DNA of 64,000 nt from positions 374,170,001 to 374,234,000 of the forward strand of contig OZ024740.1 in the NCBI GenBank assembly GCA_964016885.1, written 5' to 3'. A program made the translations under genes and the position numbers. Source of the DNA: Eledone cirrhosa (lineage: Eukaryota). The notes under the pieces were generated by a model, which searched no databases, had not been told where the DNA came from, and saw only the letters and a program-made list of their open reading frames with translations. Shown here piece by piece: positions 2,261 to 63,712 of this stretch; the first letter of the stretch is position 1, and each line of letters begins with the position of its first letter.

Positions 2261-2295
2261 GTGGTCTTTCCCATCTTTTCCACTCTATTTTAAAC

Positions 2296-33020: not shown

Positions 33021-33055
33021 GTGGTCTTTCCCATCTTTTCCACTCTATTTTAAAC

Positions 33056-36000
33056 ATGACCTCACTCAGAATAGGCAGCATAAATGCGCGTGGCTTGGGG
33101 TCGTCATGGAAGCAGGGTCACCTGCTCAACGACCTCAGGTCACTAAACATAGATGTAGTGGCCATCAGCGAGACCAGAATCTCCGAAGCACGGGCCTTCG
33201 CACCGATCTTCGGCGGCTACGATGTGTACGCATCTCCCAGCCGTCCTGGATCGGGTGGAGGAGTTGCTGTGCTTTTTCGGAGAGGTTTGGATCTCGCCAT
33301 ACGGGCCATCTTCCTAGACCCAGAGGGTAAGCTGGTGGTGCTGGACGTGACCAGCGGAGACGGGCAAGCTTTCAGGCTAGTGGCCGTCTATGCCCCGACA
33401 GGAGCAGGGCGGCCTGATTTCTTCCGGCGTCTGGAGACCTTTCTTGGAACGTCCCGCTCTTTAGTGTTAGTGGGCGACTGGAACGGGATCTTAGATGCAC
33501 GCTGGGACTGTGTGGGATTAGCGGATAGGGGTGGAGGGTGCAAGAGCCTCACCAACCTGCTCAGGCGTTTTGAACTGTCTGACAGGTACCGATTGGATTT
33601 CCCGAATGTGCCAATGTGGACTTGGACAAACCGCATAGGGTCATCCAGATCATATCTAGATAGAGTATTTTGTAGGGAAATAGATAGGTCTAGCATAGGC
33701 TGTCCACAATTCAAGATAGTCAGCTACACGGACCACAAATTCGTGATCTGTGTGCTTGACTTAGATAGGCTTCATAGACGAGGACCCGGCTACTGGAAGC
33801 TAAACGCGTCCTTACCAGCGCGCAAGGCCTACAGAGACCGGATTAGCGAACTAGTTAAGCGGGCGTTGACGGGGGCCATCGTCAACAACAAGTGGTGGTT
33901 TGCTCTGAAAAGAGCGATTAGAATAGAATCGATTAGGTTTAGTAAGGCTTTAGCAATAGAGAAAAATAGAGCAGAGGGAGAACTTGTTAGAAAATTAGAC
34001 GAGGCGCTTAGCAAAGGCATTGCGACCGACGTGCTTGCGGCGAAATTGGCCCTTGACCAATTCTTCAATGCAAAGCACGAAGGCTGCGTTGTCAGAGCTA
34101 GGGTGCGTGCTCTCAGACACGAGGGGACGAAAGCCGTTCAATGGGCCCGAGTGGCGGAGGCGCGTCGTGGCAACAAAGCCACGATCCGGTCTTTGGTGGA
34201 CCACGACGGGCGCATGCTACTCGATCCCGGGCAAATGTGTGAAGCTTTTCAGCGACACTTCGCTCAGCTGTTCGGGGGCAGCGGTGGGCCGGGTAGAGGG
34301 ATGGACTTTAGTGTCTACCTCGACGGACTGCCGCGGCTCTCGGCCACTGAGGCGAGGTGTTGCGAAAAGCCGATAACAGCCGCTGAAGTAAGGGAGGCAA
34401 TGACTGGCTGCACAAGGGGTAAATCGCCTGGTTTGGATGGTCTGCCCTATGAACTTTACGTACAGATGCCAGACTTGTTCGGAGGCCTCTTGGCGGACGT
34501 CTACTGCAACTGGCAACAGAACGGGAGAATTCCCAGTTCTGTGAGCCGAGGAGCGGTGGCACTGCTGAGAAAGGATCCGAACAAGGGGGATAACATAGAC
34601 AATTTCCGGCCCATAACTCTGCTAAACACAGAGTTTAAGATTTTGGCCAAGGTGCTAGCAAAGAGGTTGGCGCTTGTCGTTGGTGGTCTGGTGGGAGAGG
34701 CGCAGACATGCGCCATTCCCGACAGATCCATCCACGACAACCTCCACCTCATGCGATACATCGTAGAGAGGGTAGCTAGGGAACCTGGCACGGGTGGGTC
34801 CTTGATCAATTTAGATCAGTCGAAAGCTTTCGATAGGGTCGACCATCGTTACCTAGCGGCAGTCCTGAGGGCGGCTGGCTTTGGGCCCGTCTTCAGAGGC
34901 TGGATCGCTGCCATGCACAGCGACATCTGCTCTGTGGTGAGAGTGAACGGTCACCTGTCGGAACCGTTCAACATCATGCGCTCGGTCCGCCAAGGATGTC
35001 CCCTCTCGTCCCTCTTGTACGTATTGACTCTCGAGCCATTACTGCACAAACTGGAGACGTTGAGGGGAGTCCCGCGCGAACTAGGATGCGGAAGATCCGT
35101 GTCAGCATATGCCGACGATGTCACCGTAGTGGTGTCGAACGCCAAACACATCGAGGCGATCGGCACTACACTAAGAGAATACGAAGCGGTGACAGGAGCA
35201 ATGATCAACCAGGAAAAGTCAGTGGGCCTGCAGCTCGGCACCTGGAGAGGCAGGTCCATGCCGTCCAACAGCGTCGTCGGGCGCTGGACGGACGGACCGG
35301 TTAAATTGCTAGGGGTCTGGTTCGGTCCGGACCTCCAGACGGACAAAAACTGGGACGAGGTGACGAGCAGGGTGGCTTCTCTCACCCAGAAATGGGCGGA
35401 GAGGAAGCTATCCCTGAAAGGTCGAGCGGAGGTGGCTAACGCGTACATCGCGTCTGTCATCTGCTACCGCCTAACCGTCGTACCTTGTCCTAAGCCTCGC
35501 CTGACTGCGCTGGAGCGTTTGCTCTTTCGCTTTTTGTGGAAGGGACGTGCTCCGATGGTCAGGCGGTCCATCTGTTGTCAACACCCGCTACGTGGAGGGC
35601 TGGGCATGCCGTGGCTGATGATGCGCAGGCACGCGCTCAGGCTACGACATCTCCACCTCTTCCTCGACGGTGATCAGGTGTGGTCGCCGTTTGCTAGACG
35701 CGTTTTTCCCCAGCTCGTTTCCTTGACGGAGCTGCAGTCCTGGGTCAAGCGAAGACCGAGAGGGAGCGCCTGGAGACTGGAATGTCTTCAGGCGCTCACA
35801 GCCCTCGACCAATCGGGCAATGTGATCGGTGGAAACTCCACCTCGGCGTTCTATAGAGGATTAGTGGAGGGGAAGAGCGACGACGTACTTGGGGAAACTC
35901 TAGGCGTCGACGAAAATCAACTAGCCAATCTCTTCGGAAGAACTTTCGGGCCGGGGCCTATGGACAACTTCCAGAAATCTCTGGCCTGGCAGTGCTACCG

Positions 36001-36475
36001 AGGAGCCTTGCCAGTTCGGGATAAACTCTACAGGCATGGAGGTGCCGTCAGCCGGGCATGTCCGAGATGCGCGCAGGGCGACGAAACCGTCCTGCACGCA
36101 CTCGTCCAGTGTCCGAAAATTGCTGACTTGTGGGTTTATGTCGAACACCTGCTGTCGCGTTTAGGACGGATCCAGCTATCATCTGAGTCTATCGTGAGGA
36201 TTGCCCCGCCCTCCTCCTTTAGCCGGGAAGGGCAGGCAGTTTTTATCTGTCTGGTGGCCATGGCGAAAGAGATAGTATGGTGGACACGTTTGAAAGGGCT
36301 GAAGACGAGCACTTACCTCTTCGGTGATGCTCTGATTGACTTTTTCAAATTTCATTTGAAAAGGAAAATCAGAGTAGAGAAGGAAGTGCTCTCTTCCCAG
36401 CATTTTGTTGAAAGATGGGTGAGAGAAGCAAGAATGGCCCGAGTGAATGGGCCGACTCTGAGTATATATCTGTAA
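33056..36475 (+). CDS. ORF2 APE + RT + zinc finger (1139 aa)
   Basis: Same motifs as 2296..5715; only two amino-acid differences noticed. Confidence 0.96.
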   Translation: MTSLRIGSINARGLGSSWKQGHLLNDLRSLNIDVVAISETRISEARAFAPIFGGYDVYASPSRPGSGGGVAVLFRRGLDLAIRAIFLDPEGKLVVLDVTSGDGQAFRLVAVYAPTGAGRPDFFRRLETFLGTSRSLVLVGDWNGILDARWDCVGLADRGGGCKSLTNLLRRFELSDRYRLDFPNVPMWTWTNRIGSSRSYLDRVFCREIDRSSIGCPQFKIVSYTDHKFVICVLDLDRLHRRGPGYWKLNASLPARKAYRDRISELVKRALTGAIVNNKWWFALKRAIRIESIRFSKALAIEKNRAEGELVRKLDEALSKGIATDVLAAKLALDQFFNAKHEGCVVRARVRALRHEGTKAVQWARVAEARRGNKATIRSLVDHDGRMLLDPGQMCEAFQRHFAQLFGGSGGPGRGMDFSVYLDGLPRLSATEARCCEKPITAAEVREAMTGCTRGKSPGLDGLPYELYVQMPDLFGGLLADVYCNWQQNGRIPSSVSRGAVALLRKDPNKGDNIDNFRPITLLNTEFKILAKVLAKRLALVVGGLVGEAQTCAIPDRSIHDNLHLMRYIVERVAREPGTGGSLINLDQSKAFDRVDHRYLAAVLRAAGFGPVFRGWIAAMHSDICSVVRVNGHLSEPFNIMRSVRQGCPLSSLLYVLTLEPLLHKLETLRGVPRELGCGRSVSAYADDVTVVVSNAKHIEAIGTTLREYEAVTGAMINQEKSVGLQLGTWRGRSMPSNSVVGRWTDGPVKLLGVWFGPDLQTDKNWDEVTSRVASLTQKWAERKLSLKGRAEVANAYIASVICYRLTVVPCPKPRLTALERLLFRFLWKGRAPMVRRSICCQHPLRGGLGMPWLMMRRHALRLRHLHLFLDGDQVWSPFARRVFPQLVSLTELQSWVKRRPRGSAWRLECLQALTALDQSGNVIGGNSTSAFYRGLVEGKSDDVLGETLGVDENQLANLFGRTFGPGPMDNFQKSLAWQCYRGALPVRDKLYRHGGAVSRACPRCAQGDETVLHALVQCPKIADLWVYVEHLLSRLGRIQLSSESIVRIAPPSSFSREGQAVFICLVAMAKEIVWWTRLKGLKTSTYLFGDALIDFFKFHLKRKIRVEKEVLSSQHFVERWVREARMARVNGPTLSIYL

Positions 36476-43482: not shown

Positions 43483-43736
43483 TCAACATAATAACTAAAT
43501 AATTACTGCTAAAATTCCGAGGGGAAAAAGATAATCAACTGGGAGTTAAAAGCCGACAAGCGAACAGCGTGTAGAAATGAAATAACAAAACAACACGTGA
43601 ACACAAACTAGTGATAGCGGGATGAGATGAGAAAGCAGTTTACAAGAAACCACGGTCTAACATTCCGAAAAAAAAAATATATATATATATTTGTTTTGCA
43701 AGACTTTTGATATGGAATCGTGTGTCGAACAAATAT

Positions 43737-45646
43737 GGTTATACTTGGGGAGGGTCATATTTTTGTAATAATATTGCCAGAAATAATAACAGAACACACT
43801 CACTGTTTGGTTGGTTTCCGCTTCTGTATCGTTTATATCTCCATAGTTAATTTATTTGGCAATCCATGTTTATCATTGACTGACCAATGGTCAAAAATAC
43901 AGATATGAATACATATATATAGTCTAACAAAGTTCTTTCGTTGCACATCTGCAACATCATCAGTGGTACCATTATGTTTCCTCCTGTTGTATTGTATGTC
44001 TACGCCATTTTTATTTTATCTATTTATTTATTTATTTATTTTGTCTTCGTCTCTAGGCATGCGTTTGCATGTGTGAACAGTGTTTGGTCTGTGTGTGTTC
44101 GCGTTTGGGTGTATGTGTTTTGGTTATTGTATTCTATCTTAGTTTACTAGTGTGTGTTTATGTGTTTGATATTATTGTGACTGTGTGTATATTTATTTAC
44201 TTTATCTATTTATATGTCTCTTATGTCAGTATTGTTTGATTGGGTGTTGTTTTTCCATTCATTTTTTTCTGTTTAGCTTGGGCTTTCTAAGCTCTATTTC
44301 GCTTGCTTCTCTGATTTGCCTACCTATTGGATCTTTTCTATGTTTAGATATTATTTTAATTTATACGTTGTCTATGTTACCGCCATGCTGTTGTCTGGCG
44401 TGTTTGTATAGTATTGAGCCGTTTTTTATCCTTTTAATTACCCCTAGTGTTGGTCTATTCTTTCTCATGTGCTTCGAACTGTCTCACCTATGTATGTTAT
44501 TGCCATGTTTCTGCAAGTACTCTCTGTACATCTTATGCTATAGAGTACATTTCTAGTTTTACAGTTTATCTGGGGTTTTTACTTTACATATAACACATTT
44601 CTTATTATTAAAGTGGGTTTTCTTAAAAGGGTATGTTTTGGTGATCAGGGATTTTATGGTGGTTCCTGGCTTTTCTACCACTTTAAATTTTAAGTGGGTC
44701 TTTCTCAGGACCTTTCTACATTGGTTAGCTAATTTCCCTGCAGGGGTAGCATCCACGAACATGAGACTCTGGCATCTCTGGTCGTTGCCCCATGAGATGG
44801 CTTTCCCTATCTTATGTTTAGTCCTATCTCAGCTATTCAATGGTTTGCTCCTATATAATGGGCAAATTCCATCCATATCCATTTCTATGAGGTTCTTATA
44901 CTTCTACGCGTCTCCTTTGTATACTCTGATTCAGTTTCTTTGGTTGTAGCCAGAGAACCGCATGCGGTTGATGAGGTGTTGGATGTGTCTTTCCATTTAT
45001 GTTGGGTCGCACATAAGAGTTACGTTCTTCATCACTCGGACCAAGTCTGCGATCAGAATATTAAAATTAGCACTACTGGAAATTGCTGAGATTTTGACTA
45101 TCAGCTATTTGGAGACCATTGGTTTAGCGTAGTGTGAGTGGAGAATTTGGGCTCTCTCGTCTATAGTGTTAATCCAGAGTTCCGTTTCTAATACAGGCAG
45201 TCTATTGTTAGGGTTATTGGAAGAGTCAATAGTTACAGATATACTCTTGTGTATGGAGCTAGCTATCTGCTGGATGCTTTCCATTGTGCTATATTCTAAA
45301 TCATGTTGGTTAGTACTCTCTTGTGGTGGGTGTCATTATTACTATATTAATATCGTCTACGTAACGAGAGTACATGATGAGGTCTATGGAGCTCTCTTCA
45401 AGGAAATCTTTGAGTCTCCTTTCCCACCATACCAGAAAAAGGTAGGCAATATCACCAGCTATGCTGACGCCAATGGCTGCTCCCTCATTTTGGGTGTAGA
45501 TCTTTTCATTGAATTTGAATATATGGCCCATTAGGGTAGATTTAATACTAGCCCCGATTGCATGCGCGACCATTTTTCTCACCTGATGATTGTTTTGGGG
45601 TGTCCGTATGGCAATATTATTACACGCATATGACCCTCCCCAAGTA

Positions 45647-45650
<4 letters not shown>
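43737..45650 (-). mobile_element. Degenerate Penelope-like element (RT + GIY-YIG; possibly Neptune-type)
   Basis: GAAIGVSIAG..YSRYVDD, HSHYAKPM, FVDATP..VVEKPG, YIGET..ERI.QH in broken frames; ~45 bp inverted copies at 43737-43780 and 45609-45650. Confidence 0.75.
43925..43968 (-). ncRNA. Minimal hammerhead ribozyme motif in the PLE 3' region
   Basis: uacca-CUGAUGA-u-GUUGCA gaug UGCAAC-GAAA-gaacUU|uguua. Confidence 0.6.

Positions 45651-45728
<78 letters not shown>
45651..45728. repeat. (TA)n(GA)n microsatellite
   Basis: Seen directly. Confidence 0.95.
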
Positions 45729-45731
<3 letters not shown>

Positions 45732-45806
45732 TTATGTAATAAACAACATGAAATAATTATTTCATTATACTCTGTTTTCAAATCCATATTACTAATTCAT
45801 AAATAA

Positions 45807-45875
45807 ATATTTTTTCTGATGAATGAAGACAGACGTACATATCTGTCTTCAAGAAACCACTGGTAAATTAAATAT
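45807..45875 (+). ncRNA. Hammerhead ribozyme motif (solo unit between microsatellites)
   Basis: CUGAUGA-a-UGAAGACAGA cguacaua UCUGUCUUCA-a-GAAA-CC acu GG-UA|; stem I weak and AT-rich. Confidence 0.6.
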
Positions 45876-45966
45876 ATACTTTATGTTGTTTACTACATAA
45901 TAAAATCTATGTAGCCCACATAGAGCACTCTCGTTTCCTTTACCTTTCCTACGGAAATACTTCATT

Positions 45967-45998
<32 letters not shown>

Positions 45999-46054
45999 TA
46001 AAAAAATAATGAATAAAACAATGAAACAGTTCCTTATATTAAACAAAAAAAAAG

Positions 46055-46207
46055 TTCATTATTTAACGATCGTTTCTAGGACATATATATGGTATAATTG
46101 GCATGCATATTCAACAGATCTATGTACAGAATTATACAAAATTATACAAACTATCAAATATAATATACATACCAACACATACATATGCCGTCTTCAGAAA
46201 TAATGAA
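46055..46207 (-). ncRNA. Hammerhead ribozyme with extended stem II (PLE 3' end)
   Basis: Reverse complement of 56011-56163. Confidence 0.78.
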
Positions 46208-46556
46208 ATATATTTATTGATAATAACAACAATTCAAAATTACAGGTCTGTTTGGGAACAGAGTTCAAATTGACCAATGAGATACACAAAAATATATCAA
46301 GAAAATACAGTTAGGTGTGTGTATATATGTAAGTAACTTCGTTCACAGATATGCATAAACATATATGTTCACATTCATACGCATGTCGGAAAAATATATG
46401 TAAATACAAAAATTCAGGGCTAATGTTTCTGTATGTTTATAATCTACAGATAAAATACACATACGTATATAAACATATATACATTCATATATACACACAT
46501 ATAGATACATTCACACACACACGCGCATATACACATAAACATACACATACCCACGA

Positions 46557-46587
<31 letters not shown>

Positions 46588-46806
46588 TATGTATATACTA
46601 TTATTATAACTATATGGATATTAAGGCGCACACATAAGCACTGCCACATATATTTACATCTAGATGCAGAAGTAGGTGAAGGGGGTCAGTAATTACTAAG
46701 GGTGTCAGACAACTGCCTATTTATAAAATGTATCTATGAATTTAGAAATAAAAAGAAATATATAAAAAAAATAAACAAGTAAAATATAAAATACACATCG
46801 ATATAC

Positions 46807-46838
<32 letters not shown>

Positions 46839-47312
46839 ACATATATATACATATATATACATATATATACATACATATATATATAGAGACACGTACATAT
46901 ACATATATAAATACATAGACACATATACATACACACATATATATATACATATATTCACAACACACATATATATATACACACATATATGTACATACACATA
47001 CACACATACATACATATATATATATATACATACACACACATATATATACACACATATATATATATATACATACACACACACATATATACACACACACACA
47101 TACATATACGTATATATACACACACATACACATATCCATGTATGTATATACACATACAACCACACGCTCACACAACTCAGACATACATAAATAAAGAGAT
47201 ATACATACACACATATACATATATATATATATAGAGAGAGATATATACATACACATAAATATACATACACACACACACACACATATACATACACATATGT
47301 ATATATATACAT

Positions 47313-47389
<77 letters not shown>

Positions 47390-47578
47390 TATATAAAAAT
47401 ATATAAATAAATAAATAAATAAATAAATACACACAGTCAGACAATTATGCACACATATATATATATACATATACATATCTCTACAAATATATATACACAT
47501 ACACACGCACACATACATATATACATACACACATACATATATAGACATATATATACACACACATATACATATATATAC

Positions 47579-47623
<45 letters not shown>

Positions 47624-48747
47624 CATACACACTTATTTACATGCGCACATATGTATTTTTATACTCACTTACAAACACCCAAACATACATACCTACTTAC
47701 ATACACATACATACATCCACGCTTACAAATACAAATAATTATAGGGGGGGGGATTAAAATTATTAGTGGGAAATAGTAAATATAGGTTTCAAGGAACATA
47801 GAATATTAATCTGCATTTAGATCATAATATCTGTTTACATAGTAGTTTCAGTATTAGGAAATGTAAGAAAAAAGGCAAAATTTTGCATTTTAATATAAGT
47901 AGACTATTAATTATAGGTTTACTAAATTAAAAATAGTTAATATATTGATTTCTAAGGTGTACACTACTCAGGTTTATAATATTTGAAGCGGAATTTTGAA
48001 GTTAAACAGTAGTAGAGTATTAATTATAGCATAACTAAATTAAAAATATTAACATTATGGTATCAATATTAGGAAATGAATTTAGTAATAGAGAAAACCA
48101 AATCAAGTATTTCATCGGTAGTAGAATATAAATTATAGGTTAACTAAATTAAAAATTATATATTAATTACTATAGTATATGTTAATTAGGTTTATAATAA
48201 TTAAAGCAGATTTTGTATTTTATCTATAGTAGAATATAATTATAGGTTAACAAAAATTAAAATTAATATATATATATATATATTTTTAATTGTAAAGAAT
48301 ATATTAATTAGGTATATATTTAAAAATTTATCTCAGTTTATGATTACATGATATTCTGCAATACATCTGTATTAGAATTTTAATTTTAAGCTAATTAAAT
48401 TAAAATTATAGGTTAACTAAATTAAAATTAATTTATAAATACATTTCTAAATTGTACATTAATTAGGTTTATAATATTAAAAAATATTTCTCTGTTATTG
48501 ATTACACGATATTTTGTTATATTTCATCTGTAAAGGAATTTTAATAAAGGTTAAATAAACTAAAATTAATCTATAAATTAATTTACAAAGTATATATTAA
48601 TTATGTTAATAATATTTAAAAGTTGTTCACAATTTATGATTACACAATATTTTTTAACCTCATCTGTAGTAGAATTTTAATTAAATTAAATTTATAGGTT
48701 AACTACATTTAAATTATATTATATATTAATTTCTAAAATATATATTA

Positions 48748-51151
48748 TTAATTAGGTTTATAATATTTAAATGTTTTTCTCAGTTTATGATTACACGATA
48801 TAATTAATTCCTGTCGCTTATTTAATAGGATATCCTTAGATTTCATTATTTCAAATAGTTCTTGGGAACATAATCTACATTCATTTCTATTATTTTGATA
48901 AGGGGTGGCTCTTTTGAGCACACTCCAGGTCATATCATATTCTATATTCTTATTTCTATAACTATTAATTTTTTCTGCTAGAGATGTTGTATTAGCCAGT
49001 GCGGCATTTTTAAAACTATGTTTGTGGGTATTAAACCTTACCTTAAAATTGTTAGAAGTAGCTCCTATATATGAGCAAATAGAATCTTTAGTTTTAGCTT
49101 TACATTTATAAACTATGTTGTTAACAAGACAATTTCCTTTTAATGGGCCGTTTGCTTTGTTTCTACAGTTACAACCTTTCGTTAATTCTGTATTTGAGGA
49201 GATATTATGGTTAGTTTGATGTATTGGTGGTATACTTATGGTATAAGCATTATAGGCACTTATATTTTGTTTTATGTTTTTGGTTGTTGAGTATGAGAAT
49301 TTAACTGTTGACCTATTTAAGATTTGATGGTATTTGTGGTTTGGCGGGAAGTTTTTCTCTAGGATATAAAAAATTTTTTTAGCAATATTATCCTTAATTT
49401 GTAAATTAAATGGAGCATTATACCAAGTAACTCGTCTATTATGGTTTCTATGTTGTTTATTATTGTTATAGGTTGTATCGTGATGTTTACTAGGAGGATT
49501 AATGTTAATGACCTCACCACGCATATTTTTAGTTAGATTTATTGATTTAGGTGTTTTATCTTGTTTATTAGGAGTTTTATTATTAATATTTATTAGAGTT
49601 GTATGATGAGTAGTTTTTTGAGAGTTACTATACTTTATATTAGAGGAGTTGTTGGTATTTTGGGGTATAGTGTGGGTGGCATTTAGGTGTGTACTTTTCG
49701 TTTGGTGTTTGTTGGTAATATTAGGTTGTATGTTTATAGTATTTTTAGTAGAAGGTATATATTCTAATCTATTTTTGTGGCCACTTCTATCTAGAGCTTC
49801 GTTATAGAAGGTCGCATTTTTATCAAATACATCTTGGTTAGACGAAAGGTTAGAAATTCTAAGTGATATATTATATGCAAGGTTTTTAAGGATAGATTTA
49901 GGGTGATTAGATTGTGAGTGTATGTAGTTAAAGTTTTGGTTGGGTTTATGGTAAGGTTGGTAGATACCCGTAGCTAAGTCTAAAGTTATATCTAAGAAAT
50001 TAACTACTTTACTTGTGTTTTCAAAAGTAATATGAAGACTATAATAGTCTTTAAGGAAAGTTCTAATAAGCTTTTTGTTTTTTTCTATTTCTGAGAGGCT
50101 AATGTTGTTGGAAAGGAGAAGACAGTCATCACGATATAAACCACCTTTAAGGTGGGGAAAGGAAGCATTTATGTTGAAAAGAAGAAAGAGGCCCACAAGA
50201 TCAGTAATTTGGGCAGAATCGCTTGAACCCATAGTAATATCAAATAGATTACTATATGTGTTTCTGGTCCAGTATTCATTCTGAAATTCAACAAGTGTTA
50301 GTCTAGCATGTGTAATACTATTAATGTCATCCAAAGTTAAGTTAGATCTATTTGTAGCAAATATCAAAGCTTTGTTCAGGAGTATAGGTGATATAGAAGA
50401 GTAGTAATTATCTATATCAAATTGTAGAAATGAAGCAGAAGATTTACATCTAATATATTTAAACCAGTTAATTACCTGGAAAGTGTTTTCCCAGAGTGGT
50501 AAATTAACATGTTTTCTTAATTGTGGGATGACTCTATCCTAAATTTTTTTGCTAATTATTCCAATATCAGATTTGGAGGGACATATAAGTCTTATAGAAG
50601 GATTTGAGTTAAAGTTTGATTTATGATCCTTCAGATTGAAGTGTGGTCTTTTCAATACCAAAGGTTCAGTTCTATCTTCAATGTTTAGATTTTTTACTAT
50701 GTTGTGTGTTTTGTTGTTGATGTTGGTGAGTGACGCATTATTAGATTTTTTATAATTTTTCCTGAGTTCTTTATATATGAACTCATTATAATCTTCAATA
50801 TCCATGTGATACAAGTTTCCAGTTTTGTCCGAGTGGACATGGATTTTTTTAGACTTTTTTTAGGTCCTTTTGAAAGACAGATTTATACTTCTTAAATTTG
50901 AGGTGTTTAATTAAATTAAAAAGGTCTTTCTCAAAGTCTTCAAGTAGAGAGTTGTGTGGTGAATCTTGTAAGTATTGAAATCATACATATATTTCCCATC
51001 TGCATATTTAGATTTTTTTATCGAAGTGGTAGGCCCTCCATCTAACTCTTCTGATAAATTTGTTAGTTTTCTGTATCATAAGGAGTAAGAAGTCATCCTT
51101 AGAAGGTATTGGTATATTCTTTAAAGAGGTTCCCAAGTATTGTTTTTCCAT
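48748..51151 (-). pseudogene. Penelope-like RT + GIY-YIG endonuclease (premature TAG at 50539-50541, N-terminal frameshifts)
   Basis: MEKQYLGTSLKNIPIPS, LKDHK.NF, RLICPSKS, QFDIDNYY, FDITMGS, GLYRDD, VNFLDITL, YHKPN, WYNAPF, CNC.....(C)PL.GNC, IVY..YIGAT..FK.R..H. Confidence 0.9.
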
Positions 51152-51245
51152 TGTGATATGGATAATGGACAATAGAAAGAGCTCAACTAAATGTATATGA
51201 GGTTATAACATCATACATATATATGTATATACATAAATATAAAAA

Positions 51246-52032
<787 letters not shown>

Positions 52033-54705
52033 ATATAGTAATCTATTTGATATTACTATGGGTTCAAGCGATTCTGCCCAAATTACTGATCTTGTGGGCC
52101 TCTTTCTTCTTTTCAACATAAATGCTTCCTTTCCCCACCTTAAAGGTGGTTTATATCGTGATGACTGTCTTCTCCTTTCCAACAACCTTAGCCTCTCAGA
52201 AATAGAAAAAAACAAAAAGCTTATTAGAACTTTCCTTAAAGACTATTATAGTCTTCATATTACTTTTGAAAACACAAGTAAAGTAGTTAATTTCATAGAT
52301 ATAACTTTAGACTTAGCTACGGGTATCTACCAACCTTACCATAAACCCAACCAAAACTTACACTACATACACTCACAATCTAATCACCCTAAATCTATCC
52401 TTAAAAACCTTGCATATAATATATCACTTAGAATTTCTAACCTTTCGTCTAACCAAGATGTATTTGATAAAAATGCGACCTTCTATAACGAAGCCCTAGA
52501 TAGAAGTGGCCACAAAATAGATTAGAATATATACCTTCTACTAAAAATACTATAAACATACAACCTAATATTACCAACAAACACGAAATGAAAAGTACAC
52601 ACCTAAATGCCACTCAAGCTATACCCCAAAATACCAACAACTCCTCTAATATAAAGTATAGTAACTCTCAAAAAACTACTCATCATACAACTCTAATAAA
52701 TGTTAATAATAAAATGTTAATAATAAAACTCCTAATAAACAAGATAAAACACCTAAATCAATAAATCTAACTAAAAATATGCGTGGTGAGGTCATTAACA
52801 TTAATCCTCCTAGTAAACATCACGATACAACCTATAACAATAATAAACAACATAGAAACCGTAATAGACGAGTTACTTGGTATAATGCTCCATTTAATTT
52901 ACAAATTAAGGATAATATTGCTAAAAAAAATTTTTATATCCTAGAGAAAAACTTCCCGCCAAACCACAGATACCATCAAATCTTAAATAGGTCAACAGTT
53001 AAATTCTCATACTCAACAACCAAAAACATAAAACAAAATATAAGTGCCTATAATGCATATAAATGTAAAAATACCATAAGTATACCACCAATACATCAAA
53101 CTAACCATAATATCTCCTCAAATACAGAATTAACGAAAGGTTGTAACTAGAAACAAAGCAAACTGCCCATTAAAAGGAAATTGTCTTGTTAACAACATAG
53201 TTTATAAATGTAAAGTTAAAACTAAAGATTCTATTTGCTCATATATAGGAGCTACTTCTAAAAATTGTAAGGTAAGGTTTAATACCCACAAACATAGTTT
53301 TAAAAATGCCGCACTAGCTAATACAACCTCTCTAGCAGAACAAATTAATAGTTATAGAAATAAGAATATAGAATATGATATGACCTGGAGTGTGCTTAAA
53401 AGAGCCACCCCTTATCAAAATAATAGAAATGAATGTAGATTATGTTCCCAAGAACTATTTGAAATAATGAAATCTAAGGATATCCTATTAAATAAGCGAC
53501 AGGAATTAATTATATCGTGTAATCATAAACTGAGAAAAACATTTAAATATTATAAACCTAATTAATAATATATATTTTAGAAATTAATATATAATTTAAT
53601 TTAAATGTAGTTAACCTATAAATTTAATTTAATTAAAATTCTACTACAGATGAGATTAACAAATATTGTGTAATTCTAAATTGTGAAAAACTTTTAAATA
53701 TTATTAACATAATTAATATATACTTTGTAAATTAATTTATAGATTAATTTTAGTTTATTTAACCTTTATTAAAATTCCTTTACAGATGAAATATAACAAA
53801 ATATCGTGTAATCAATAACATAGAAATATTTTTTAATATTATAAACCTAATTAATGTAAAATTTAGAAATGTATTTATGAATTAATTTTAATTTAGTTAA
53901 CCTATAATTTTAATTTAATTAGCTTAGAATTAAAATTCTAATACAGATGTATTGCAGAATATCATGTAATCATAAACTGAGATAAATTTTTAAATATATA
54001 CCTAATTAATATATTCTTTACAATTAAAAATATATATATATATATATTAATTTTAATTTTTGTTAACCTATAATTATATTCTACTATAGATAAAATACAA
54101 AATCTGCTTTAATTATTATAAACCTAATTAACATATACTATAGAAATTAATATATAATTTTTAATTTAGTTAACCTATAATTTATATTCTACTACCGATA
54201 AAATACTTGATTTGGTTTTCCCTATTACTAAATTCATTTCCTAATATTGATACCATAATGTTAATATTTTTAATTTAGTTATGCTATAATTAATACTCTA
54301 CTACTGTTCAACTTCAAAATTCCGCTTCAAATATTATAAACCTGAGTAGTATACACCTTAGAAATCAATATACTATTTTTATATCAATAACTATTTTTAA
54401 TTTAGTCAACCTATAATTAATAGTCTACTTATATTAAAATGTATAATTTTGCCTTCTTTCTTACATTTCCTAATACTGAAACTACTATGTAAACAGATAT
54501 TATGATCTAAATGCAGATTAATATTCTATGTTCCTTGAAACCTATATTTACTATTTCCCACTAATAATTTTAACCCCTCCCCCCCTATAATTATTTGTTT
54601 TTGTAAGCGTGGATGTATGTATGTGTATGTAAGTAGGTATGTATGTTTGGGTGTTTGTAAGTGAGTATAAAAATACATATGTGCGCATGTAAATAAGTGT
54701 GTATG

Positions 54706-54744
<39 letters not shown>

Positions 54745-54923
54745 ATATATGTATATATATGTATATGTGTGTGTATATATATGTCTATATATGTATGTGT
54801 GTATGTATATATGTATGTGTGCGTGTGTATGTGTATATATATTTGTAGAGATGTGTGTAAGTATATATATATATGTGTGCATAATTGTCTGACTGTGTGT
54901 ATTTATTTATTTATTTATTTATA

Positions 54924-54982
<59 letters not shown>

Positions 54983-55013
54983 GTGTATGTGTATGTGTGT
55001 GTGTGTGTATGTA

Positions 55014-55052
<39 letters not shown>

Positions 55053-56226
55053 GTGTGTATGTATATCTCTTTATTTATGTATGTCTGAGTTGTGTGAGCG
55101 TGTGGTGGTATGTGTATATACATACATGGATATGTGTATGTGTGTGTATATATACGTATATGTATGTGTGTGTGTGTGTATATATATGTGTGTGTGTGTA
55201 TATATATATATGTATGTATGTGTGTATGTGTATGTACATATATGTGTGTATATATATATATGTGTGTTGTGAATATATGTATATATATATATGTGTATAT
55301 GTATATGTGTCTATATATTTATATATGTATATGTATGTGTCTCTCTATATATATGTATGTATATATATGTATATATATGTATATGTATATATATATATAT
55401 GTGTATATCGATGTGTATTTTATATTTTACTTGTTTATTTTTTTAATATATTTCTTTTTATTTCTAAACTTATAGATACATTTTATAAATAGGCAGTTGT
55501 CTGACACCCTTAGTAATTACTGACCCCGTTCACCTACTTCTGCATCTAGATGTAAATATATGTGGCAGTGCTTATGTGTGCGCCTTAATATCCATATAGT
55601 TATAATAATAGTTTATACATATGTGTGTGTGTGTGTGTGGGTGTGTGTGTGTGTGTATGTTCGTGGGTACGTGTATGTTTATGTGTATATGCGTGTGTGT
55701 GTGTGAATGTATCTATATGTGTGTATATATGAATGTATATATGTTTATATACGTATGTGTATTTTATCTGTAGATTATAAACATACAGAGACATTAGCCC
55801 TGAATTTTTGTATTTACATACATTTTTTCGACATGCGTATGTATGTGAACATATATTTTTATGCATATCTGTGAACGAAGTTACTTACATATATACACAC
55901 ACCTAACTGTGTTTTTCTTGATATATTTTTGTGTATCTCATTGGTCAATTTGAACTCTGTTCCCAAACAGACCTGTAATTTTGAATTGTTGTTATTATCA
56001 ATAAATATATTTCATTATTTCTGAAGACGGCATATGTATGTGTTGGTATGTATATTATATTTGATAGTTTGTATAATTTTGTATAATTTTGTACATAGAT
56101 CTGTTGAATATGCATGCCAATTATAACACATATATGTCCTAGAAACGATCGTTAAATAATGAACTTTTTTTGTTTAATATAAGGAACTGTTTCATTGTTT
56201 TATTCATTATTTTTTTAATATTTTAT
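52033..56226 (+). mobile_element. 5'-truncated inverted copy of the Naiad-type PLE
   Basis: ORF fragments 52058..52525, 52779..53150 and 53380..53565, then the same 3' region and hammerhead. Confidence 0.87.
56011..56163 (+). ncRNA. Hammerhead ribozyme with extended stem II
   Basis: 10-bp stem I UUCAUUAUUU/AAAUAAUGAA, CUGAAGA, ~110-nt stem II (UUGGUAUGUAUAUU/AAUAUGCAUGCCAA), GAAA, palindromic stem III ACGAUCGU, cleavage triplet GUU. Confidence 0.8.
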
Positions 56227-56366
56227 CTTGACTCTGTATTCCGTTTATCTTTCACCGTAAGTGATTTTTGAATGCATCTCTTCTTTCCATGATATCCGGA
56301 TTACATAGAGTTCTTCATTACGGATTGGACACTACCGTAAACTCTTGGTAGATTTATCTACATATA

Positions 56367-56430
<64 letters not shown>

Positions 56431-56437
<7 letters not shown>

Positions 56438-56875
56438 TGAATATAAAAGAAAAACGAACACAGACGTATACATATATGTGTTAAAATCGTAAGAGAACAG
56501 ATGCGCTAAGGTGAAGAGAATAGGTGCGCTAATATTATATATAGAAAGGTGCGCTTATATTATATATAGCATACTGTCTAGTTTCTTAATATACTTAGAA
56601 GTGTCAAGGAATGTAATTTATCACCCCCTGATGAATATAAATTAGTAATTCTATTCACAATTAATTTTGCTAAACAACACCAAGTTGCCTGGGTGTCGGT
56701 AGTTACCACAATTCCAGTTTGTATTTATTTCCTTGATTTTTTTCTTAAATTGTGACAAGCAAACACAATACTCTATAGTTAGTATTCCCTTCACCATAAC
56801 CAATCTGGTCCCTTACGATTTGAACACATATATGTATATGTCTGTGTTCGTTTTTCTCTTATATTCAATTATAAT
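56431..56875. repeat. Small element with ~70-bp inverted ends and a decayed internal hammerhead
   Basis: 56431-56500 is the reverse complement of 56803-56875 with mismatches; CTGATGA at 56628. Confidence 0.6.
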
Positions 56876-56955
56876 ATAGGGCTCGGAAATATCTCATTCT
56901 TAGAGCTATTTTATTGTAAGAGACTATTTTGAGTTCCTAACTCAATATATACTTT

Positions 56956-57432
<477 letters not shown>

Positions 57433-58160
57433 TGCGCGCGTGTGTGTGTGTGTGTATAATTATAATACAAATATGACCACAAAACATAAACAATTGAAAA
57501 ATGTAATATTTAAGCGTATACCAATGACAGTCTGTTCTATATCTAATGTTGGGTAGCGGTACTGTTGTCGGCTTCCCATGTCGTTAGGCTAATTTCGCAA
57601 AGCGTGAACAAATAGGCCTGTAAGGAAAATAAAATCGCACGGCTCTCATACAATCATCTGGTAAATCAAAAACCCCACAAAACTATAAACGGCAAAGGAC
57701 AACAATAGTAGGAGGTTACCAAGTATGGTATGATGACAAAAGACGTAAACAACACTGTAGAAAAGATTCGTGTGTATAGGGCCAAATTTAAAAATGACTG
57801 TGTAGCGATCTTTTCATATATTTTCCCTGATCTATTTTTCTTTTCATATACCCGTAGGTATTATAATCCTAACTGTTTCCGTTCTTTGTCAACTATTTGT
57901 TTGCTCGACTGCTTCCGCTCTCGAGCCAAGCTTTCCGGAGGGAAATAGGTTTGATTTGGGCCTATCACCCGGGATGTGATCTGAATGAACGTTTTCTACT
58001 CTAACTATCCCCCAAAATGGGGTCACTCGCTACATCTAACTGATGGACGGATAAGTTTATTTTTATTTTCATTTATTTTTATTTATTTATTCCGTTTCAC
58101 CAGTCTTCTTTCTGAAATTTGGAATCAATAGCTACAAACATACACCCACGCAATCATATG

Positions 58161-58199
<39 letters not shown>

Positions 58200-58200
<1 letters not shown>

Positions 58201-58618
58201 TATGTACACGTACATACATATATGTATACAGACGTACACTAGTATGTATATACTTACATACATGCCCACACATATGTACGTATGGGTTTACCGAACATAT
58301 ATTATAATGATCGTTTTGTTTGTAAACAAACACCCCGAATTATTAGCCGTACAGTGTTCGGCAACAACGTTGCCCATTTGTGCAACACTCACAAAAGAAC
58401 GATGAACTAGTTTCTAGCTTATTAACTGTGATCAGCACATTCCAGTCAGTTGTTTGAAAGTTTGAAAGTATATACTTTCCCTATGCATATTATCGGCTAA
58501 GCAGCCGAATTTGCATATCGAGTGAGTTAGTCGGCCGGTTGTTCCCGAAAACGATCAATGGAAAAAATGAAATTTTATTTCTCACTCCTAGTACGGCTGA
58601 TACTTAAATATACATGCA
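58200..58618 (+). repeat. Unclassified ~428-bp repeat family, one unit
   Basis: Homologous to 60283-60432, 60432-60658 (inverted) and 61020-61695. Confidence 0.7.
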
Positions 58619-58796
58619 TATATATATATATATATATATTGGAATAAATGCTCTGAAATAGCGATATATATGTGAATATAGACATAGAATATTCGAAAAT
58701 ATTCTGTATGTTTATAATAAACATTTTGAAGACCTAATCGCTATAGAATAGAATACGTCACGTATTACAATTAGATTCTCGATAAAAGCAAGGGAA

Positions 58797-58839
58797 GTAA
58801 TCTACGCGTTTCATTCTTATTAGAAATCTTCAGGACTAC
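58797..58839 (-). ncRNA. Minimal type I hammerhead ribozyme
   Basis: Reverse complement of 59962-60004. Confidence 0.85.
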
Positions 58840-59106
58840 ATATCCAGTGCTTTTATCGAGAATGACACAGCTAGAGACTTATAGAATACTTAGCTGTGTA
58901 CATGAACTGGTTTGAAAGAGCGGTTGCCGGTCCGGCAGAAATTAGAAATTGGAATAAATGCTCTGAAATAGCGATATATATGTGAATATAGACATAGAAT
59001 ATTCGAAAATATTCTGTATGTTTATAATAAACATTTTGAAGACCTAATCGCTATAGAATAGAATACGTCACGTATTACAATTAGATTCTCGATAAAAGCA
59101 AGGGAA

Positions 59107-59149
59107 GTAATCTACGCGTTTCATTCTTATTAGAAATCTTCAGGACTAC
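59107..59149 (-). ncRNA. Minimal type I hammerhead ribozyme
   Basis: Reverse complement of 59652-59694. Confidence 0.85.
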
Positions 59150-59651
59150 ATATCCAGTGCTTTTATCGAGAATGACACAGCTAGAGACTTATAGAATACT
59201 TAGCTGTGTACATGAACTGGTTTGAAAGAGCGGTTGCCGGTCCGGCAGAAATTAGAAATTGGAATAAATGCTCTGAAATAGCGATATATATGTGAATATA
59301 GACATAGAATATTCGAAAATATTCTGTATGTTTATAATAAACATTTTGAAGACCTAATCGCTATAGAATAGAATACGTCACGTATTACAATTAGATTCTC
59401 GAGAATCTAATTGTAATACGTGACGTATTCTATTCTATAGCGATTAGGTCTTCAAAATGTTTATTATAAACATACAGAATATTTTCGAATATTCTATGTC
59501 TATATTCACATATATATCGCTATTTCAGAGCATTTATTCCAATTTCTAATTTCTGCCGGACCGGCAACCGCTCTTTCAAACCAGTTCATGTACACAGCTA
59601 AGTATTCTATAAGTCTCTAGCTGTGTCATTCTCGATAAAAGCACTGGATAT

Positions 59652-59694
59652 GTAGTCCTGAAGATTTCTAATAAGAATGAAACGCGTAGATTAC
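59652..59694 (+). ncRNA. Minimal type I hammerhead ribozyme
   Basis: GUAGUC-CUGAAGA-u-UUCU aaua AGAA-u-GAAA-CGCG-UA|GAUUAC; all core nucleotides present, 6-bp stem I, palindromic stem III. Confidence 0.88.
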
Positions 59695-59961
59695 TTCCCT
59701 TGCTTTTATCGAGAATCTAATTGTAATACGTGACGTATTCTATTCTATAGCGATTAGGTCTTCAAAATGTTTATTATAAACATACAGAATATTTTCGAAT
59801 ATTCTATGTCTATATTCACATATATATCGCTATTTCAGAGCATTTATTCCAATTTCTAATTTCTGCCGGACCGGCAACCGCTCTTTCAAACCAGTTCATG
59901 TACACAGCTAAGTATTCTATAAGTCTCTAGCTGTGTCATTCTCGATAAAAGCACTGGATAT

Positions 59962-60004
59962 GTAGTCCTGAAGATTTCTAATAAGAATGAAACGCGTAGA
60001 TTAC
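59962..60004 (+). ncRNA. Minimal type I hammerhead ribozyme
   Basis: Identical to 59652-59694, 310 nt downstream. Confidence 0.88.
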
Positions 60005-60149
60005 TTCCCTTGCTTTTATCGAGAATCTAATTGTAATACGTGACGTATTCTATTCTATAGCGATTAGGTCTTCAAAATGTTTATTATAAACATACAGAAT
60101 ATTTTCGAATATTCTATGTCTATATTCATATATATATATATATATATGT

Positions 60150-60690
<541 letters not shown>

Positions 60691-60898
60691 CGTTTCTGGA
60701 TTTGTTTAGCAATATTCTTTATCTGAAAACGTGTGTAGGATCCGCTATTGTTAAACTTTGGGAGGTTCATGTTGCCAATAAGAAACTCACGCACCAGTTG
60801 CTTTAACTTCAATTTATTATAATAAATTTATAAATTTAGGAATTTATAAATTTCCGGTTGGTTGGTGGGTTCCACAACCAGATGGTTGTTTATATATT

Positions 60899-60941
60899 GT
60901 CAAAGTTCTTTCGTCACACATTCTATGACCTCTTCAGTGAC
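60899..60941 (-). ncRNA. Minimal hammerhead ribozyme motif
   Basis: GUCA-CUGAAGA-g-GUCAUA gaaug UGUGAC-GAAA-gaacUU|UGAC; same stem III as 43925-43968. Confidence 0.65.
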
Positions 60942-61019
60942 TGGGAATATTTTCTTTGTTTTTGTGCCTCTCCTTTGTTCTGTCCTACGCCATCTTGTTT
61001 TTGTGTGTGTGTTATATAT

Positions 61020-61691
61020 ATATACGTATGTATACGTACATACATATATGTAATCAGACGTACGGTAGTATATATATATACATACATGCACACATATATA
61101 TATATATATGTACGTATGGATTCACCAAACATTTATTACAATGCTCGGTGTGTTTGTAAACAAACATACCGTATTAAGCCGTAGTGTCCAGCAACCACCG
61201 TTGCTCGTTTGATCAACACTGACAAAGGACCTCTGTACTAGTTTCAAGCTTGTTAGCTATCCTCAACAACGTATACCTTCCTGCCAGATAGTTGAACGTC
61301 CGAAAGTATATACTTTCCTTATGCATATTAACGTCTGAGTAGCCCAATTTGCATATCGAGTGGGTTAATCGGCCGGGTGCACTGAAAACGATAAACCGAA
61401 AAAATGAAACGAAATTTCATTTCCCATTCTTAGTACGGCTGTTACTTAAATATAAGTATGTATACGTACATACATATATGTATACATACGTACAGTAGTA
61501 TGTATATATATATACATACATGCACACATATATATATGTACGTATGGATTCACCAAACATTTATTATAATGCTCTTTTATTTTTGTAAACAAACATCCCG
61601 TATTAATCCGTAGTGTCCAGCAACCACCGTTGCTCGTTTGTGCACCGAAAACAATAAACGGAAAAAAATAAAACGAAATTTCATTTCCACT

Positions 61692-61695
<4 letters not shown>
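61020..61695 (+). repeat. Tandem copies of the ~428-bp repeat (second internally deleted)
   Basis: cgtatggattcaccaaacatttatta at 61113 and 61541. Confidence 0.75.
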
Positions 61696-61749
<54 letters not shown>

Positions 61750-63086
61750 CAAGAAACGAAGCAGGATGTGTGGTTACTGTAAACAAAGTGTAAGATGGTA
61801 ATATGAACGAAACAAGAGATGAAATCCTCCATCAGCTTTTAACTGCAGATCATAGATGGTTCGACGCTTGTGAAATTCTTTTTTCACCCACTTTTCGCGT
61901 GCCTCGGACGTCTTTGCCTCTTATCGTCATTTGATTTGTTCGACTTAAGCCCACAAGATTCATTGACTTGTCTCTCTTTTCCTCTCTTTACGTTGCATTA
62001 CTACCATATTGTTTGTTTACTTTTTCCTTTTCGCTCTGTCTCGATAACTTAATTTAGTTATCGTTCGCACTGATTTCAGTTGTCTAGTCGTTAATGCGAA
62101 GAAATACCAATGATAACAGCAGACTATTGATGATGGACAGTCCTGTTTCTCCGTCTATTTTCATTCATATGTTCACATTCGCAACAACGTAGCACGCCAT
62201 TTTTCATTCACATATATATTTTCCCCTCACTGTGGTTCGTATTTTTTCTGTCACATTACTGCTATCCTATTTCTCTCTAAAATAAATATAAAATAGGGTA
62301 TTAAATAAAAAACGCATATCTGTATTTGTATGCGTACCCACAACATCCATCTCACTAGCAATAAAGTACTAGTTATTCACTGAGATAATTGCTGGTCTTG
62401 TACCTAAAGTAGAAACAATTATTAGATGTCTGTAATATATTTTTTATTTTATTTTCTTAGTGGCTCAGTATCGCAGTGTGTGTTTTTATGTCTAGTGTAA
62501 GGTATATGTGATGAATTAAAATTTGATAAAATATCATACAAAGCAAATACAAAGATATACGAAAACAATTAACGTATACATATATATAGAATCATTAGAA
62601 CATCTGACTGATAAAAGCACAAGTCAGTCAATCATATTGGTGGCCTCACCACAGACCGGGCTGACAGAATGGAGGAGGTGTTTCCCCGGAGGAGGGCAAA
62701 GGACCGGCGCTGGAAAAGCCATTCCATCTCGCGAGGCTCACACCTGCGGCTGGCCAACTCAGTGCTTATGGTGGTGAGTAGGGAGGTAGCCATAGGGCCG
62801 AAGACAGCAGAAGTCTCCTAGGATTGATTTTCCTTTTGTAACATTATGTCTTTACCCCTTTACATTTCATCACCCCTGCATTCTTGTATTGCCTTATCCC
62901 TTAATGCTTACTTCAAACAATGTACCAGCGGACCGCAGGCAGATTGTTCGACACGCATGGATGCGTACGACAACTTGACCGAGATGGCGATAATAGCCGC
63001 TAAATTATAGGAAACCACCTGCTGTGATCTGACCGAAAACAAACCAACAAATAAATAGGATGACACACCAATATGATAGAATTAAT

Positions 63087-63199
63087 TGTTTCTACTTTTG
63101 GCACAAGGCCAGCAATTACACAGTACATTACTAGTACTTTATTTTATCGACCCCGTAAGGATGAAAGGCAAATTCAACCTCGGCGGGATTTGAACTCAG
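63087..63199 (-). mobile_element. Short octopus-type SINE copy with ~20-bp target-site duplication
   Basis: gcacaaggccagcaatt..ttttatcgacccc..ggatgaaaggcaaa..cctcggcgggatttgaactcaga resembles, from memory, the abundant octopus tRNA-derived SINE (B-box-like GAGTTCAAATCC on -); ACCAATATGATAGAATTAAT at 63067-63086 and 63200-63219. Confidence 0.8.
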
Positions 63200-63712
63200 A
63201 CCAATATGATAGAATTAATGGTAACATATAAGAAGGAATAAGGATAATATTCAAACACTCTCAGATGCGGGTCCACATGTTAAAACAATACTGAGTCAGG
63301 TTCGATCATAAATAGAACGAGCTGATCGACAGTGAATGATATGTAATATGTAATTAAATATGTATATGATGCAACAATGATTCTTTGTTCCCTTATATAT
63401 TAATTATATTGATAATCTGCTCCTCAAGCCATACCGCCTAAGAGACTCCGCATAGATCTTTCGTTTTTGTTTTGAACAGTTTTTGCTTGCATTTGAAAAG
63501 AGGGTTTTAGTCCAGAAATACATTAGGTAAACACTTATTTGCTTTGTTTTAGTTCTCATCATTGGCACTTTATATATTTCCACCTGCCAGTACAGGTTTT
63601 CTAAAATTATCAGTGATCTCCTACATATCTCACAATGCTTCTATATATACATTAATACTCTTACACACACACACATCACCCCCCCCCCCACACACACACA
63701 CATGCACACACA

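Follow-up and report, generated by a model that had tools for sequence, protein, structure and literature searches.

A spacerless head-to-head retrozyme palindrome in a (TA)n run of Eledone cirrhosa, likely inserted by a Penelope-like enzyme

How does a short non-coding ribozyme repeat come to stand in a genome as two mirror-image arrays that meet without a spacer? The question is raised by a locus in a 64,000-nt stretch of Eledone cirrhosa DNA (assembly GCA_964016885.1, contig OZ024740.1, positions 374,170,001 to 374,234,000 of the forward strand), called the window here, to which all coordinates refer. The arms at 58673-59400 and 59401-60128, 728 bp each, are exact reverse complements with no mismatch and a spacer of 0 nt. 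The first mismatch of the mirror is the pair 58672/60129, and the window is free of N. In the inverted-repeat listing of the window the palindrome is entry I2, with 0 nt separating its arms, and its centre reads TTAGATTCTC to the left of the axis and GAGAATCTAA to the right. The first-pass annotation had described a spacerless perfect palindrome of about 1.46 kb with arms of about 728 bp, a meeting point at TCGA, ribozyme-sense strands pointing outward and (TA)n at both ends. All of this is borne out: the arms match exactly over 58673-60128, the two arrays overlap in TCGA (59399-59402), all four hammerhead cores are directed outward, and TA runs at 58619-58638 and 60129-60146, the presumed remnants of the target, abut the insert.

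The insert as a whole (58638-60137) is asymmetric. Each arm is a perfect tandem array of about 2.4 copies of a 310-nt unit, which has no occurrence in the window outside the palindrome at 58638-60137. Counted from the predicted ribozyme cut, the left arm (58638-59402, minus strand, 765 nt, 2.47 unit copies) runs from +21 to +165 of the third unit. The right arm (59399-60137, plus strand, 730-739 nt) runs from +21 to +130 if only the exact array to 60128 is counted, or to +139 if it is followed to 60137 at the cost of one mismatch, and it ends inside the AT tract of the unit itself. The left array outruns 58673 by 35 nt, down to 58638, and this one-sided extension or tail (58638-58672, minus strand) reaches 35 nt past the exact mirror and 26 nt past the last possible base of the right arm. 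The outer inequality of the arms, a left excess of 26-35 nt, is a new observation that the first-pass annotation had missed.

The nature of the unit can be judged from its length, composition and folding. It is tandem and 310 nt long, within the 170-400 nt of retrozymes, its GC content of 33.5% is low (the class lies below 45-50%), and it is non-coding, as no stop-to-stop frame of at least 120 aa overlaps 58638-60137. Each unit carries one type I hammerhead with the core CUGAAGA, a 4-bp stem II, the segment GAAAC-GC-GUA and a 6-bp stem I. A helix I of 6 bp, a helix II of 4 bp and a short helix III with a palindromic loop make up the canonical type I form. The cores lie at 59658 and 59968 on the plus strand and at 59143 and 58833 on the minus strand, so that every arm holds two consecutive ribozymes, the minimum for the class. 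The complete motifs span 59652-59694 and 59962-60004 (plus strand, predicted cuts after 59688 and 59998) and 59107-59149 and 58797-58839 (minus strand, predicted cuts after 59113 and 58803). The hammerhead descriptor used here (stem I of at least 6 bp, stem II of at least 4 bp) matched 1 of 3000 dinucleotide-shuffled units. Rfam gave no match in the window at the gathering score, and its HH9 model matched the hammerhead of the unit weakly (17 bits, E 0.11). Among the 150 of 196 Rfam E-value matches listed, no hammerhead was found in the region 43500-62000; those listed there are of microRNA type or otherwise fall by chance on TA repeats and hairpins, and were rejected.

A 16-bp inverted repeat of the unit (59628-59643 and 59701-59716 on the plus strand, within 59628-59716, with a 57-nt spacer) extends stem I and has a TCGA in each of its arms. 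The predicted fold of the 43-nt core has an energy of -4.6 kcal/mol, and with the extended stem -31.9 kcal/mol; the ribozyme criterion of Li et al. 2026 is a fold below -5 kcal/mol, of which the bare core falls just short. In the computed fold the stem III motif of one copy pairs with that of another, and a short palindromic helix III is described as the canonical form of metazoan hammerheads, working as a dimer (PMC4209133). By these features the unit appears to be a non-LTR retrozyme, a known class, with the bare-core fold energy as the one testable property that is borderline. The retrozyme identity proposed earlier thus agrees with unit length, GC content, type I hammerheads and lack of coding capacity.

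The same proposal held that transcription from either side would give two sense ribozymes. The sequence does contain them, yet in the fold predicted for a read-through RNA 735 pairs lie in the mirror register, and the ribozymes would likely be hidden by this duplex. When one arm is transcribed alone, stems I and II of both its ribozymes are kept in the predicted fold. A transcript started near the centre could release the 310-nt monomer from either arm. Read-through from the flanks would be expected to yield a hairpin of about 730 bp, a likely source of small RNA, and a locus that encodes such a perfect hairpin could trigger silencing of the family to which it belongs.

Perfect palindromes are unstable in vivo, and the possibility that the structure arose in a read or in the assembly has to be weighed before any biological origin. 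It might be a fold-back read or a misjoin of two opposite arrays through identical sequence, and zero mismatches with zero spacer are what such an artefact would give. The 100% identity of the arms fits a young insertion and also consensus collapse, which counts against a real insertion. Fold-back reads make up about 0.55-0.6% of nanopore genomic reads and their spacer can be absent (PMC12870357). According to the same source, all sequence from the turn backwards is mirrored in a fold-back read, whereas here the flanks are not mirror images and the left arm continues for 35 nt beyond the mirror. HiFi reads are described there as virtually free of fold-backs, a point that would count here if the assembly was built from such reads.

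The flanks themselves bear on this point. The left one (58199-58615, minus strand) consists of a repeat termed X with a decayed hammerhead-like motif, and the right one (60154-60657) of more X pieces, including an asymmetric head-to-head pair (60274-60438 and 60436-60657) between TA runs. X is an older tandem-type repeat of about 440 nt, whose pieces are spread over 58199-61695 and are 72-94% identical to each other. Within the window its 14-mers are confined to 58272-61582, on both sides of the palindrome; 60154-60179 is identical to 58272-58297 at 26 of 26 positions, and the piece at 60436-60530 is 93.7% identical to the X of the left flank. Since both flanks carry the same local X subfamily, they probably come from one locus. 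The simple fold-back read that the first-pass annotation had offered as an alternative is disfavoured by the unmirrored flanks, the continuation of the left arm beyond the mirror and the X shared by both sides, and an artefact of any of these kinds is regarded as improbable. X is possibly an older retrozyme family. In several of its pieces the sequence breaks off about 135 nt past the motif, at an internal AT tract, as it does in the right arm of the palindrome. The motif of X looked hammerhead-like by eye, yet its fold is not that of a hammerhead. The descriptor is blind to long-stem or decayed motifs, and those of X, of the PLE ends described below and of 45816 and 43963 were judged by folding or by eye.

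If the palindrome is real, its outer ends should carry the signature of the enzyme that inserted it. The left arm ends at +165 and the right one at +130 to +139, inside the AT tract of the unit, which leaves a tail of 26-35 nt on the left side only, the range being set by the ambiguity of the TA run. A one-sided tail of 30-40 bp is a recognised feature of Penelope-like elements, PLEs (PMC8557442), and a tail of 31 bp has been described (PMC3846280). In vitro, the tail length produced by a purified PLE enzyme of the anole equals the gap between two internal start sites of reverse transcription; on AT-rich DNA this enzyme cleaves both strands and extends them, its RNA is mostly uncut, and a dimeric form is predicted for it (all PMC11167929). 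A head-to-head inversion at the 5' end, a one-sided tail and a (TA)n target, traits of PLE-type insertions, are all present in the palindrome. The 26-35-nt tail appears to fit the PLE tail, and because of this match in anatomy it strengthens the PLE link. A PLE-type enzyme likely copied and inserted the retrozyme repeat here.

The target contributes less. Nearly every Hydra family targets (TA)n (PMC8557442), and such a run would mask a target-site duplication. As (TA)n makes up 5.5% of the region (1128 of 20500 nt), the TA site alone is modest evidence. TA runs of at least 8 units are absent from 1-43500, and 28 of them lie beyond. The stretch 116-43273 holds a cluster of related copies of a non-LTR retrotransposon (AP endonuclease, reverse transcriptase (RT), zf-RVT) in both orientations with (ATT)n runs between them, two of which keep a 1195-aa open frame (2128-5715 and 32888-36475). 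This cluster looks like (ATT)n-targeted nesting that adjoins the (TA)n-targeted zone. At the other end of the window, 61-nt inverted termini (62360-62421 and 63083-63143, 54 of 61 identical) are MITE-like, with related copies near 25095 and 29745; the piece just after them (63140-63200) has a possible resemblance to a cephalopod SINE.

The nearest PLE adjoins the palindrome at a distance of 2.4 kb. This head-to-head element (45990-56226) consists of a left copy on the minus strand, with an ORF at about 51151-48748, and a 5'-truncated right copy on the plus strand, and both of its ORFs are broken. The first-pass annotation had called it Naiad-type. Naiads have an N-terminal endonuclease (EN), a DKA motif and no canonical hammerhead (PMC8557442). 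In the element of the window the RT is followed by the EN, with the YIG motif at residue 490 of 596, and the same order is found in 35 of 36 proteins that have both motifs, out of 63 examined (the query and 62 homologues). Its upstream frames contain SDKT/DKT and, as the RWK-type motif, RWR; a linker of the CxCx5C type is also present, as are CxxC and CxH around the conserved E and N. Among the 63 proteins DK[GA] occurs in none and DK[TS] in 28, and the strict CxCx5C pattern in 40, its third cysteine being replaced by glycine in the left copy and kept in the right copy of the element. Hydra elements lack a CCHH motif; judged by pattern, CxxC before the YIG is found in 0 of 63, and the copy in the window has two cysteines at a wider spacing. 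Both copies fold well as hammerheads about 70 nt inside their paired outer ends, with predicted cuts at 46065 and 56153. Because the EN is C-terminal, DKT stands in place of DKA, the CxCx5C is present and hammerheads occur in both copies, the element is probably Hydra-type and not a Naiad. The clade is assigned from motifs and the 62 homologues; Pfam found nothing in the four PLE frames.

The neighbour agrees with the Hydra clade (PMC8557442) in its C-terminal EN, DKT, RWR, CxCx5C, CxxC, CxH, hammerhead and TA flank. It differs in being about 5.2 kb and not less than 3 kb long, in having both copies broken, in its long microsatellite-rich 3' region and in an Asn-rich stretch between RT and EN. 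This stretch (49480-49760, rich in Asn, Thr and Lys) is absent from most homologues and recalls the N-rich inserts of rotifer PLEs (PMC3846280). The 3' region (53565-56226, about 2.7 kb) contains a 138-bp repeat. A splice-donor-like word (56257-56262, plus strand) just beyond the right paired end and an acceptor-like word (51187-51191, minus strand) just upstream of the ORF start were seen by eye, and the 135 nt past 56226 may be element sequence, an intron in the 5' UTR. Between the right paired end (56226) and the TA run that follows it lie about 135-145 nt. The layout that the palindrome was said to share with this neighbour is accordingly shared in part: both are head-to-head, and the hammerheads of the neighbour lie about 70 nt inside its ends, but (TA)n touches its left end only and its arms are kilobases apart.

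Other elements nearby have a comparable build. A second, decayed PLE-like element (43689-45655, minus strand), which may be Neptune-like by its motifs, is bordered by TA on either side. It matches RT weakly (E 0.0038), its inverted arm measures 47 nt (45609-45655), and it carries a tail of 44 nt on one side only; a hammerhead-like motif lies in it at 43963. An inverted pair at 56427-56522 and 56783-56878 (96 nt) has TA at its left end, and on the right 80 nt separate it from TA. Near 56628 a core resembling a ribozyme was tried as a hammerhead, which its fold did not support. Within 15 kb of the palindrome there are thus several head-to-head pairs whose arms are unequal and which meet TA on at least one outer side: the Hydra-type PLE (457 of 466 positions identical at the outer ends), the second PLE (43 of 47), the X pair (87 of 100) and the pair at 56427 and 56783 (86 of 96). 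As the arms of these pairs have diverged and are asymmetric, they are not single-read fold-backs. Two smaller observations belong to the same surroundings. The piece at 60690-61010 is a relative of the 43689 element's 3' end, matching it at 74% over 74 nt, has a descriptor-positive hammerhead at 60937 (minus strand) and ends at the TA run 60658-60688. Between the two PLEs, at 45730-45970, lies a hammerhead-like motif (plus strand) with its core near 45816 and a long stem II, and the sequence downstream of it ends at the TA run on the left edge of the Hydra element.

The unit has no significant homology to the Hydra-type PLE, the second PLE, X, Y or the 45816 motif in 16 comparisons, the best of which, a 16-nt exact match to the Hydra 3' region, was equalled by 6 of 200 shuffles. 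An origin of the retrozyme from a pLTR finds no counterpart in unit homology to either of the two PLEs of the window. By this comparison, and with both copies broken, the Hydra-type PLE is not supported as the mobiliser of the unit. The claim that the palindrome is structural evidence for the mobilisation of retrozymes by PLEs gains from the tail, the inversion and the TA target; no homology to the neighbouring PLE was found.

What happened at the centre of the palindrome is best approached through the position of the junction. Both arms start at +21, that is 21 nt after the predicted cut and within the 16-bp stem of the unit, and each crosses two intact hammerheads between this start and its outer end. 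TCGA (+21-24) is the first of 29 self-complementary words of at least 4 nt after the predicted cut, a figure that is post hoc. Longer palindromic words elsewhere in the unit (two 8-mers) were not used. As properties of the junction, being near the cut and being inside the 16-bp stem cannot be separated. If both cDNAs had extended to +1, joining by asymmetric microhomologies of 4-5 nt would have cost 25-35 nt of trimming in total, as compared with 40 nt for TCGA. The idea that TCGA was the only available microhomology is rejected, as such asymmetric alternatives exist, and because these joins would have lost less, cDNAs halted within the stem are a better fit than cDNAs that ran off the template and were trimmed later.

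These properties can be combined into a sequence of events. The GIY-YIG endonuclease of a PLE would nick both strands of the TA run, and each 3' end would then prime a cDNA on retrozyme RNA, beginning at one of two internal sites that lie 26-35 nt from each other. The start on the right might be helped by the AT tract of the unit itself, giving rise to the one-sided tail. Both cDNAs would cross two uncut ribozymes and halt at one barrier, the 16-bp stem just before the ribozyme-cut 5' end. Their two identical ends could anneal via the self-complementary TCGA and be filled in. The RNA template might be a linear multimer or a circle: a circle explains the identical units and a linear multimer the common stop, and a linear multimer with a ribozyme-cut 5' end accounts for this stop at least as well as a circle. 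That a head-to-head double array was written in this way into (TA)n by a PLE RT/GIY-YIG enzyme acting in trans, with two cDNAs joined at TCGA, is given a little less than an even chance. The tail, the (TA)n, the Hydra-type PLE nearby, the other head-to-head pairs and the place of TCGA as first of 29 words speak for such double-ended priming. Against it, the evidence comes from a single locus of the family, independent cDNAs need neither equal length nor a common stop, and all the other nearby pairs are asymmetric at their centre.

The equality of the arms would be explained by a self-priming PLE insertion. A single cDNA primed at the left TA end would extend over about 2.5 units and then turn back to serve as its own template for 730-739 nt, the new strand being captured by the other TA end at the AT tract of the unit. 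Equal unit number and identical start would follow, and so would the shorter second arm, which ends at the last AT tract before the end of the first. Folding of the antisense strand into the 16-bp stem is feasible (-16 kcal/mol with DNA parameters), and self-priming has been proposed for PLE head-to-head junctions with palindromes (PMC3846280). A direct fold-back at TCGA, however, leaves no room for a loop. Turning back is easiest through the 16-bp inverted repeat, after which the 77 nt between its two TCGA words would have to be lost; this requires a deletion as a second step, and no spacer is left. Nor would self-priming account for the inverted arms of the neighbouring PLEs, which lie kilobases apart. 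Self-priming is taken to be a possibility of the second rank, unlikely as it stands. The snap-back or double-ended priming suggested in the first-pass annotation thus remain the two leading mechanisms, in keeping with the PLE-like layout and the TA target, and taken together as a PLE-made insertion they are judged probable.

Short inverted repeats are established seeds of palindromes. A direct array might have broken, folded back at the 16-bp inverted repeat or at TCGA and been repaired into the TA run, with no inversion made by an RT. The junction does lie within the longest inverted repeat of the unit, but such an event usually mirrors flanking DNA too, which is not seen here, and the tail length and the match to PLE anatomy would become coincidence. 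A DNA-level origin is considered decidedly improbable.

Returning to double-ended priming, a bolder version of it has a dimeric PLE enzyme whose two subunits copy the arms simultaneously, with a single 310-nt RNA circle as template. The nicked TA strands would prime about 30 nt apart, and both polymerases would roll for about 2.4 turns and stop together, to be joined at TCGA. This version is improbable; if true, a single step would account for the equal turns, the identical units, the tail and the absence of a spacer, and the locus would preserve the trace of a PLE engaged in rolling-circle reverse transcription. Inverted retrozyme arrays would then become a genome-wide readout of how PLEs integrate. 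On the favoured reading of double-ended priming, the palindrome locus is predicted to be young and unstable.

PLEs have been named as likely mobilisers of retrozymes (PMC7229834; PMC7761336), and Li et al. 2026 (bioRxiv 10.64898/2026.07.22.740005) add to this link the co-occurrence of the two and pLTR homology in Xenopus. In these texts (PMC7229834; Li 2026) the mobiliser of animal retrozymes is argued from co-occurrence, shared ribozymes and pLTR homology. A retrozyme array with the integration footprint of a PLE (inversion, one-sided tail, TA) is evidence of a different kind, on the insertion event itself, and no support from insertion anatomy was found in the literature searched. At a single locus, the palindrome adds a testable insertion-level argument to a link that has already been proposed. 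The outer ends and junctions of the unit family would provide a cheap genome-wide test of PLE mobilisation, and the spectrum of junctions would separate double-ended priming from self-priming, a distinction that matters for PLEs as a whole.

Inverted, palindromic or head-to-head arrays of retrozymes or hammerheads were not found in print, in a literature that included few subscription papers. The word 'inverted' is absent from the main text of PMC7229834, and in Li 2026 it appears only within a reference title; the main text of the latter gives no insertion anatomy, and its supplements may list inverted loci. The parts of the structure are known, and it is their combination, a tailed, spacerless, inverted retrozyme array, that was not found in print. 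With the non-LTR retrozymes described by Cervera and de la Pena 2020 (PMC7229834) and Li 2026 the palindrome shares a tandem low-GC unit of 170-400 nt, a type I hammerhead per copy, at least two consecutive ribozymes and the lack of coding capacity. Those retrozymes, as described, form direct tandem arrays, whereas the palindrome is head-to-head, spacerless, tailed and flanked by TA.

The minimal hammerhead pairs of Schistosoma mansoni (PMC4209133) likewise lie on opposite strands, 100-700 bp apart, but they are read in that work as truncated PLEs with minimal ribozymes and not as tandem retrozyme arrays. The inverted insertions of Penelope, Neptune, Naiad and Hydra elements (PMC8557442, PMC3846280) resemble the palindrome in their head-to-head 5'-truncated copy, their 30-40-bp tail at one end, their microsatellite target and a palindrome or short overlap at the junction. 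The arms of these PLEs, as reported, are pLTRs or coding copies, usually very unequal in length, whereas the palindrome is built of multi-copy non-coding arrays with equal unit number and identical start, and with no detectable homology to a PLE in the window.
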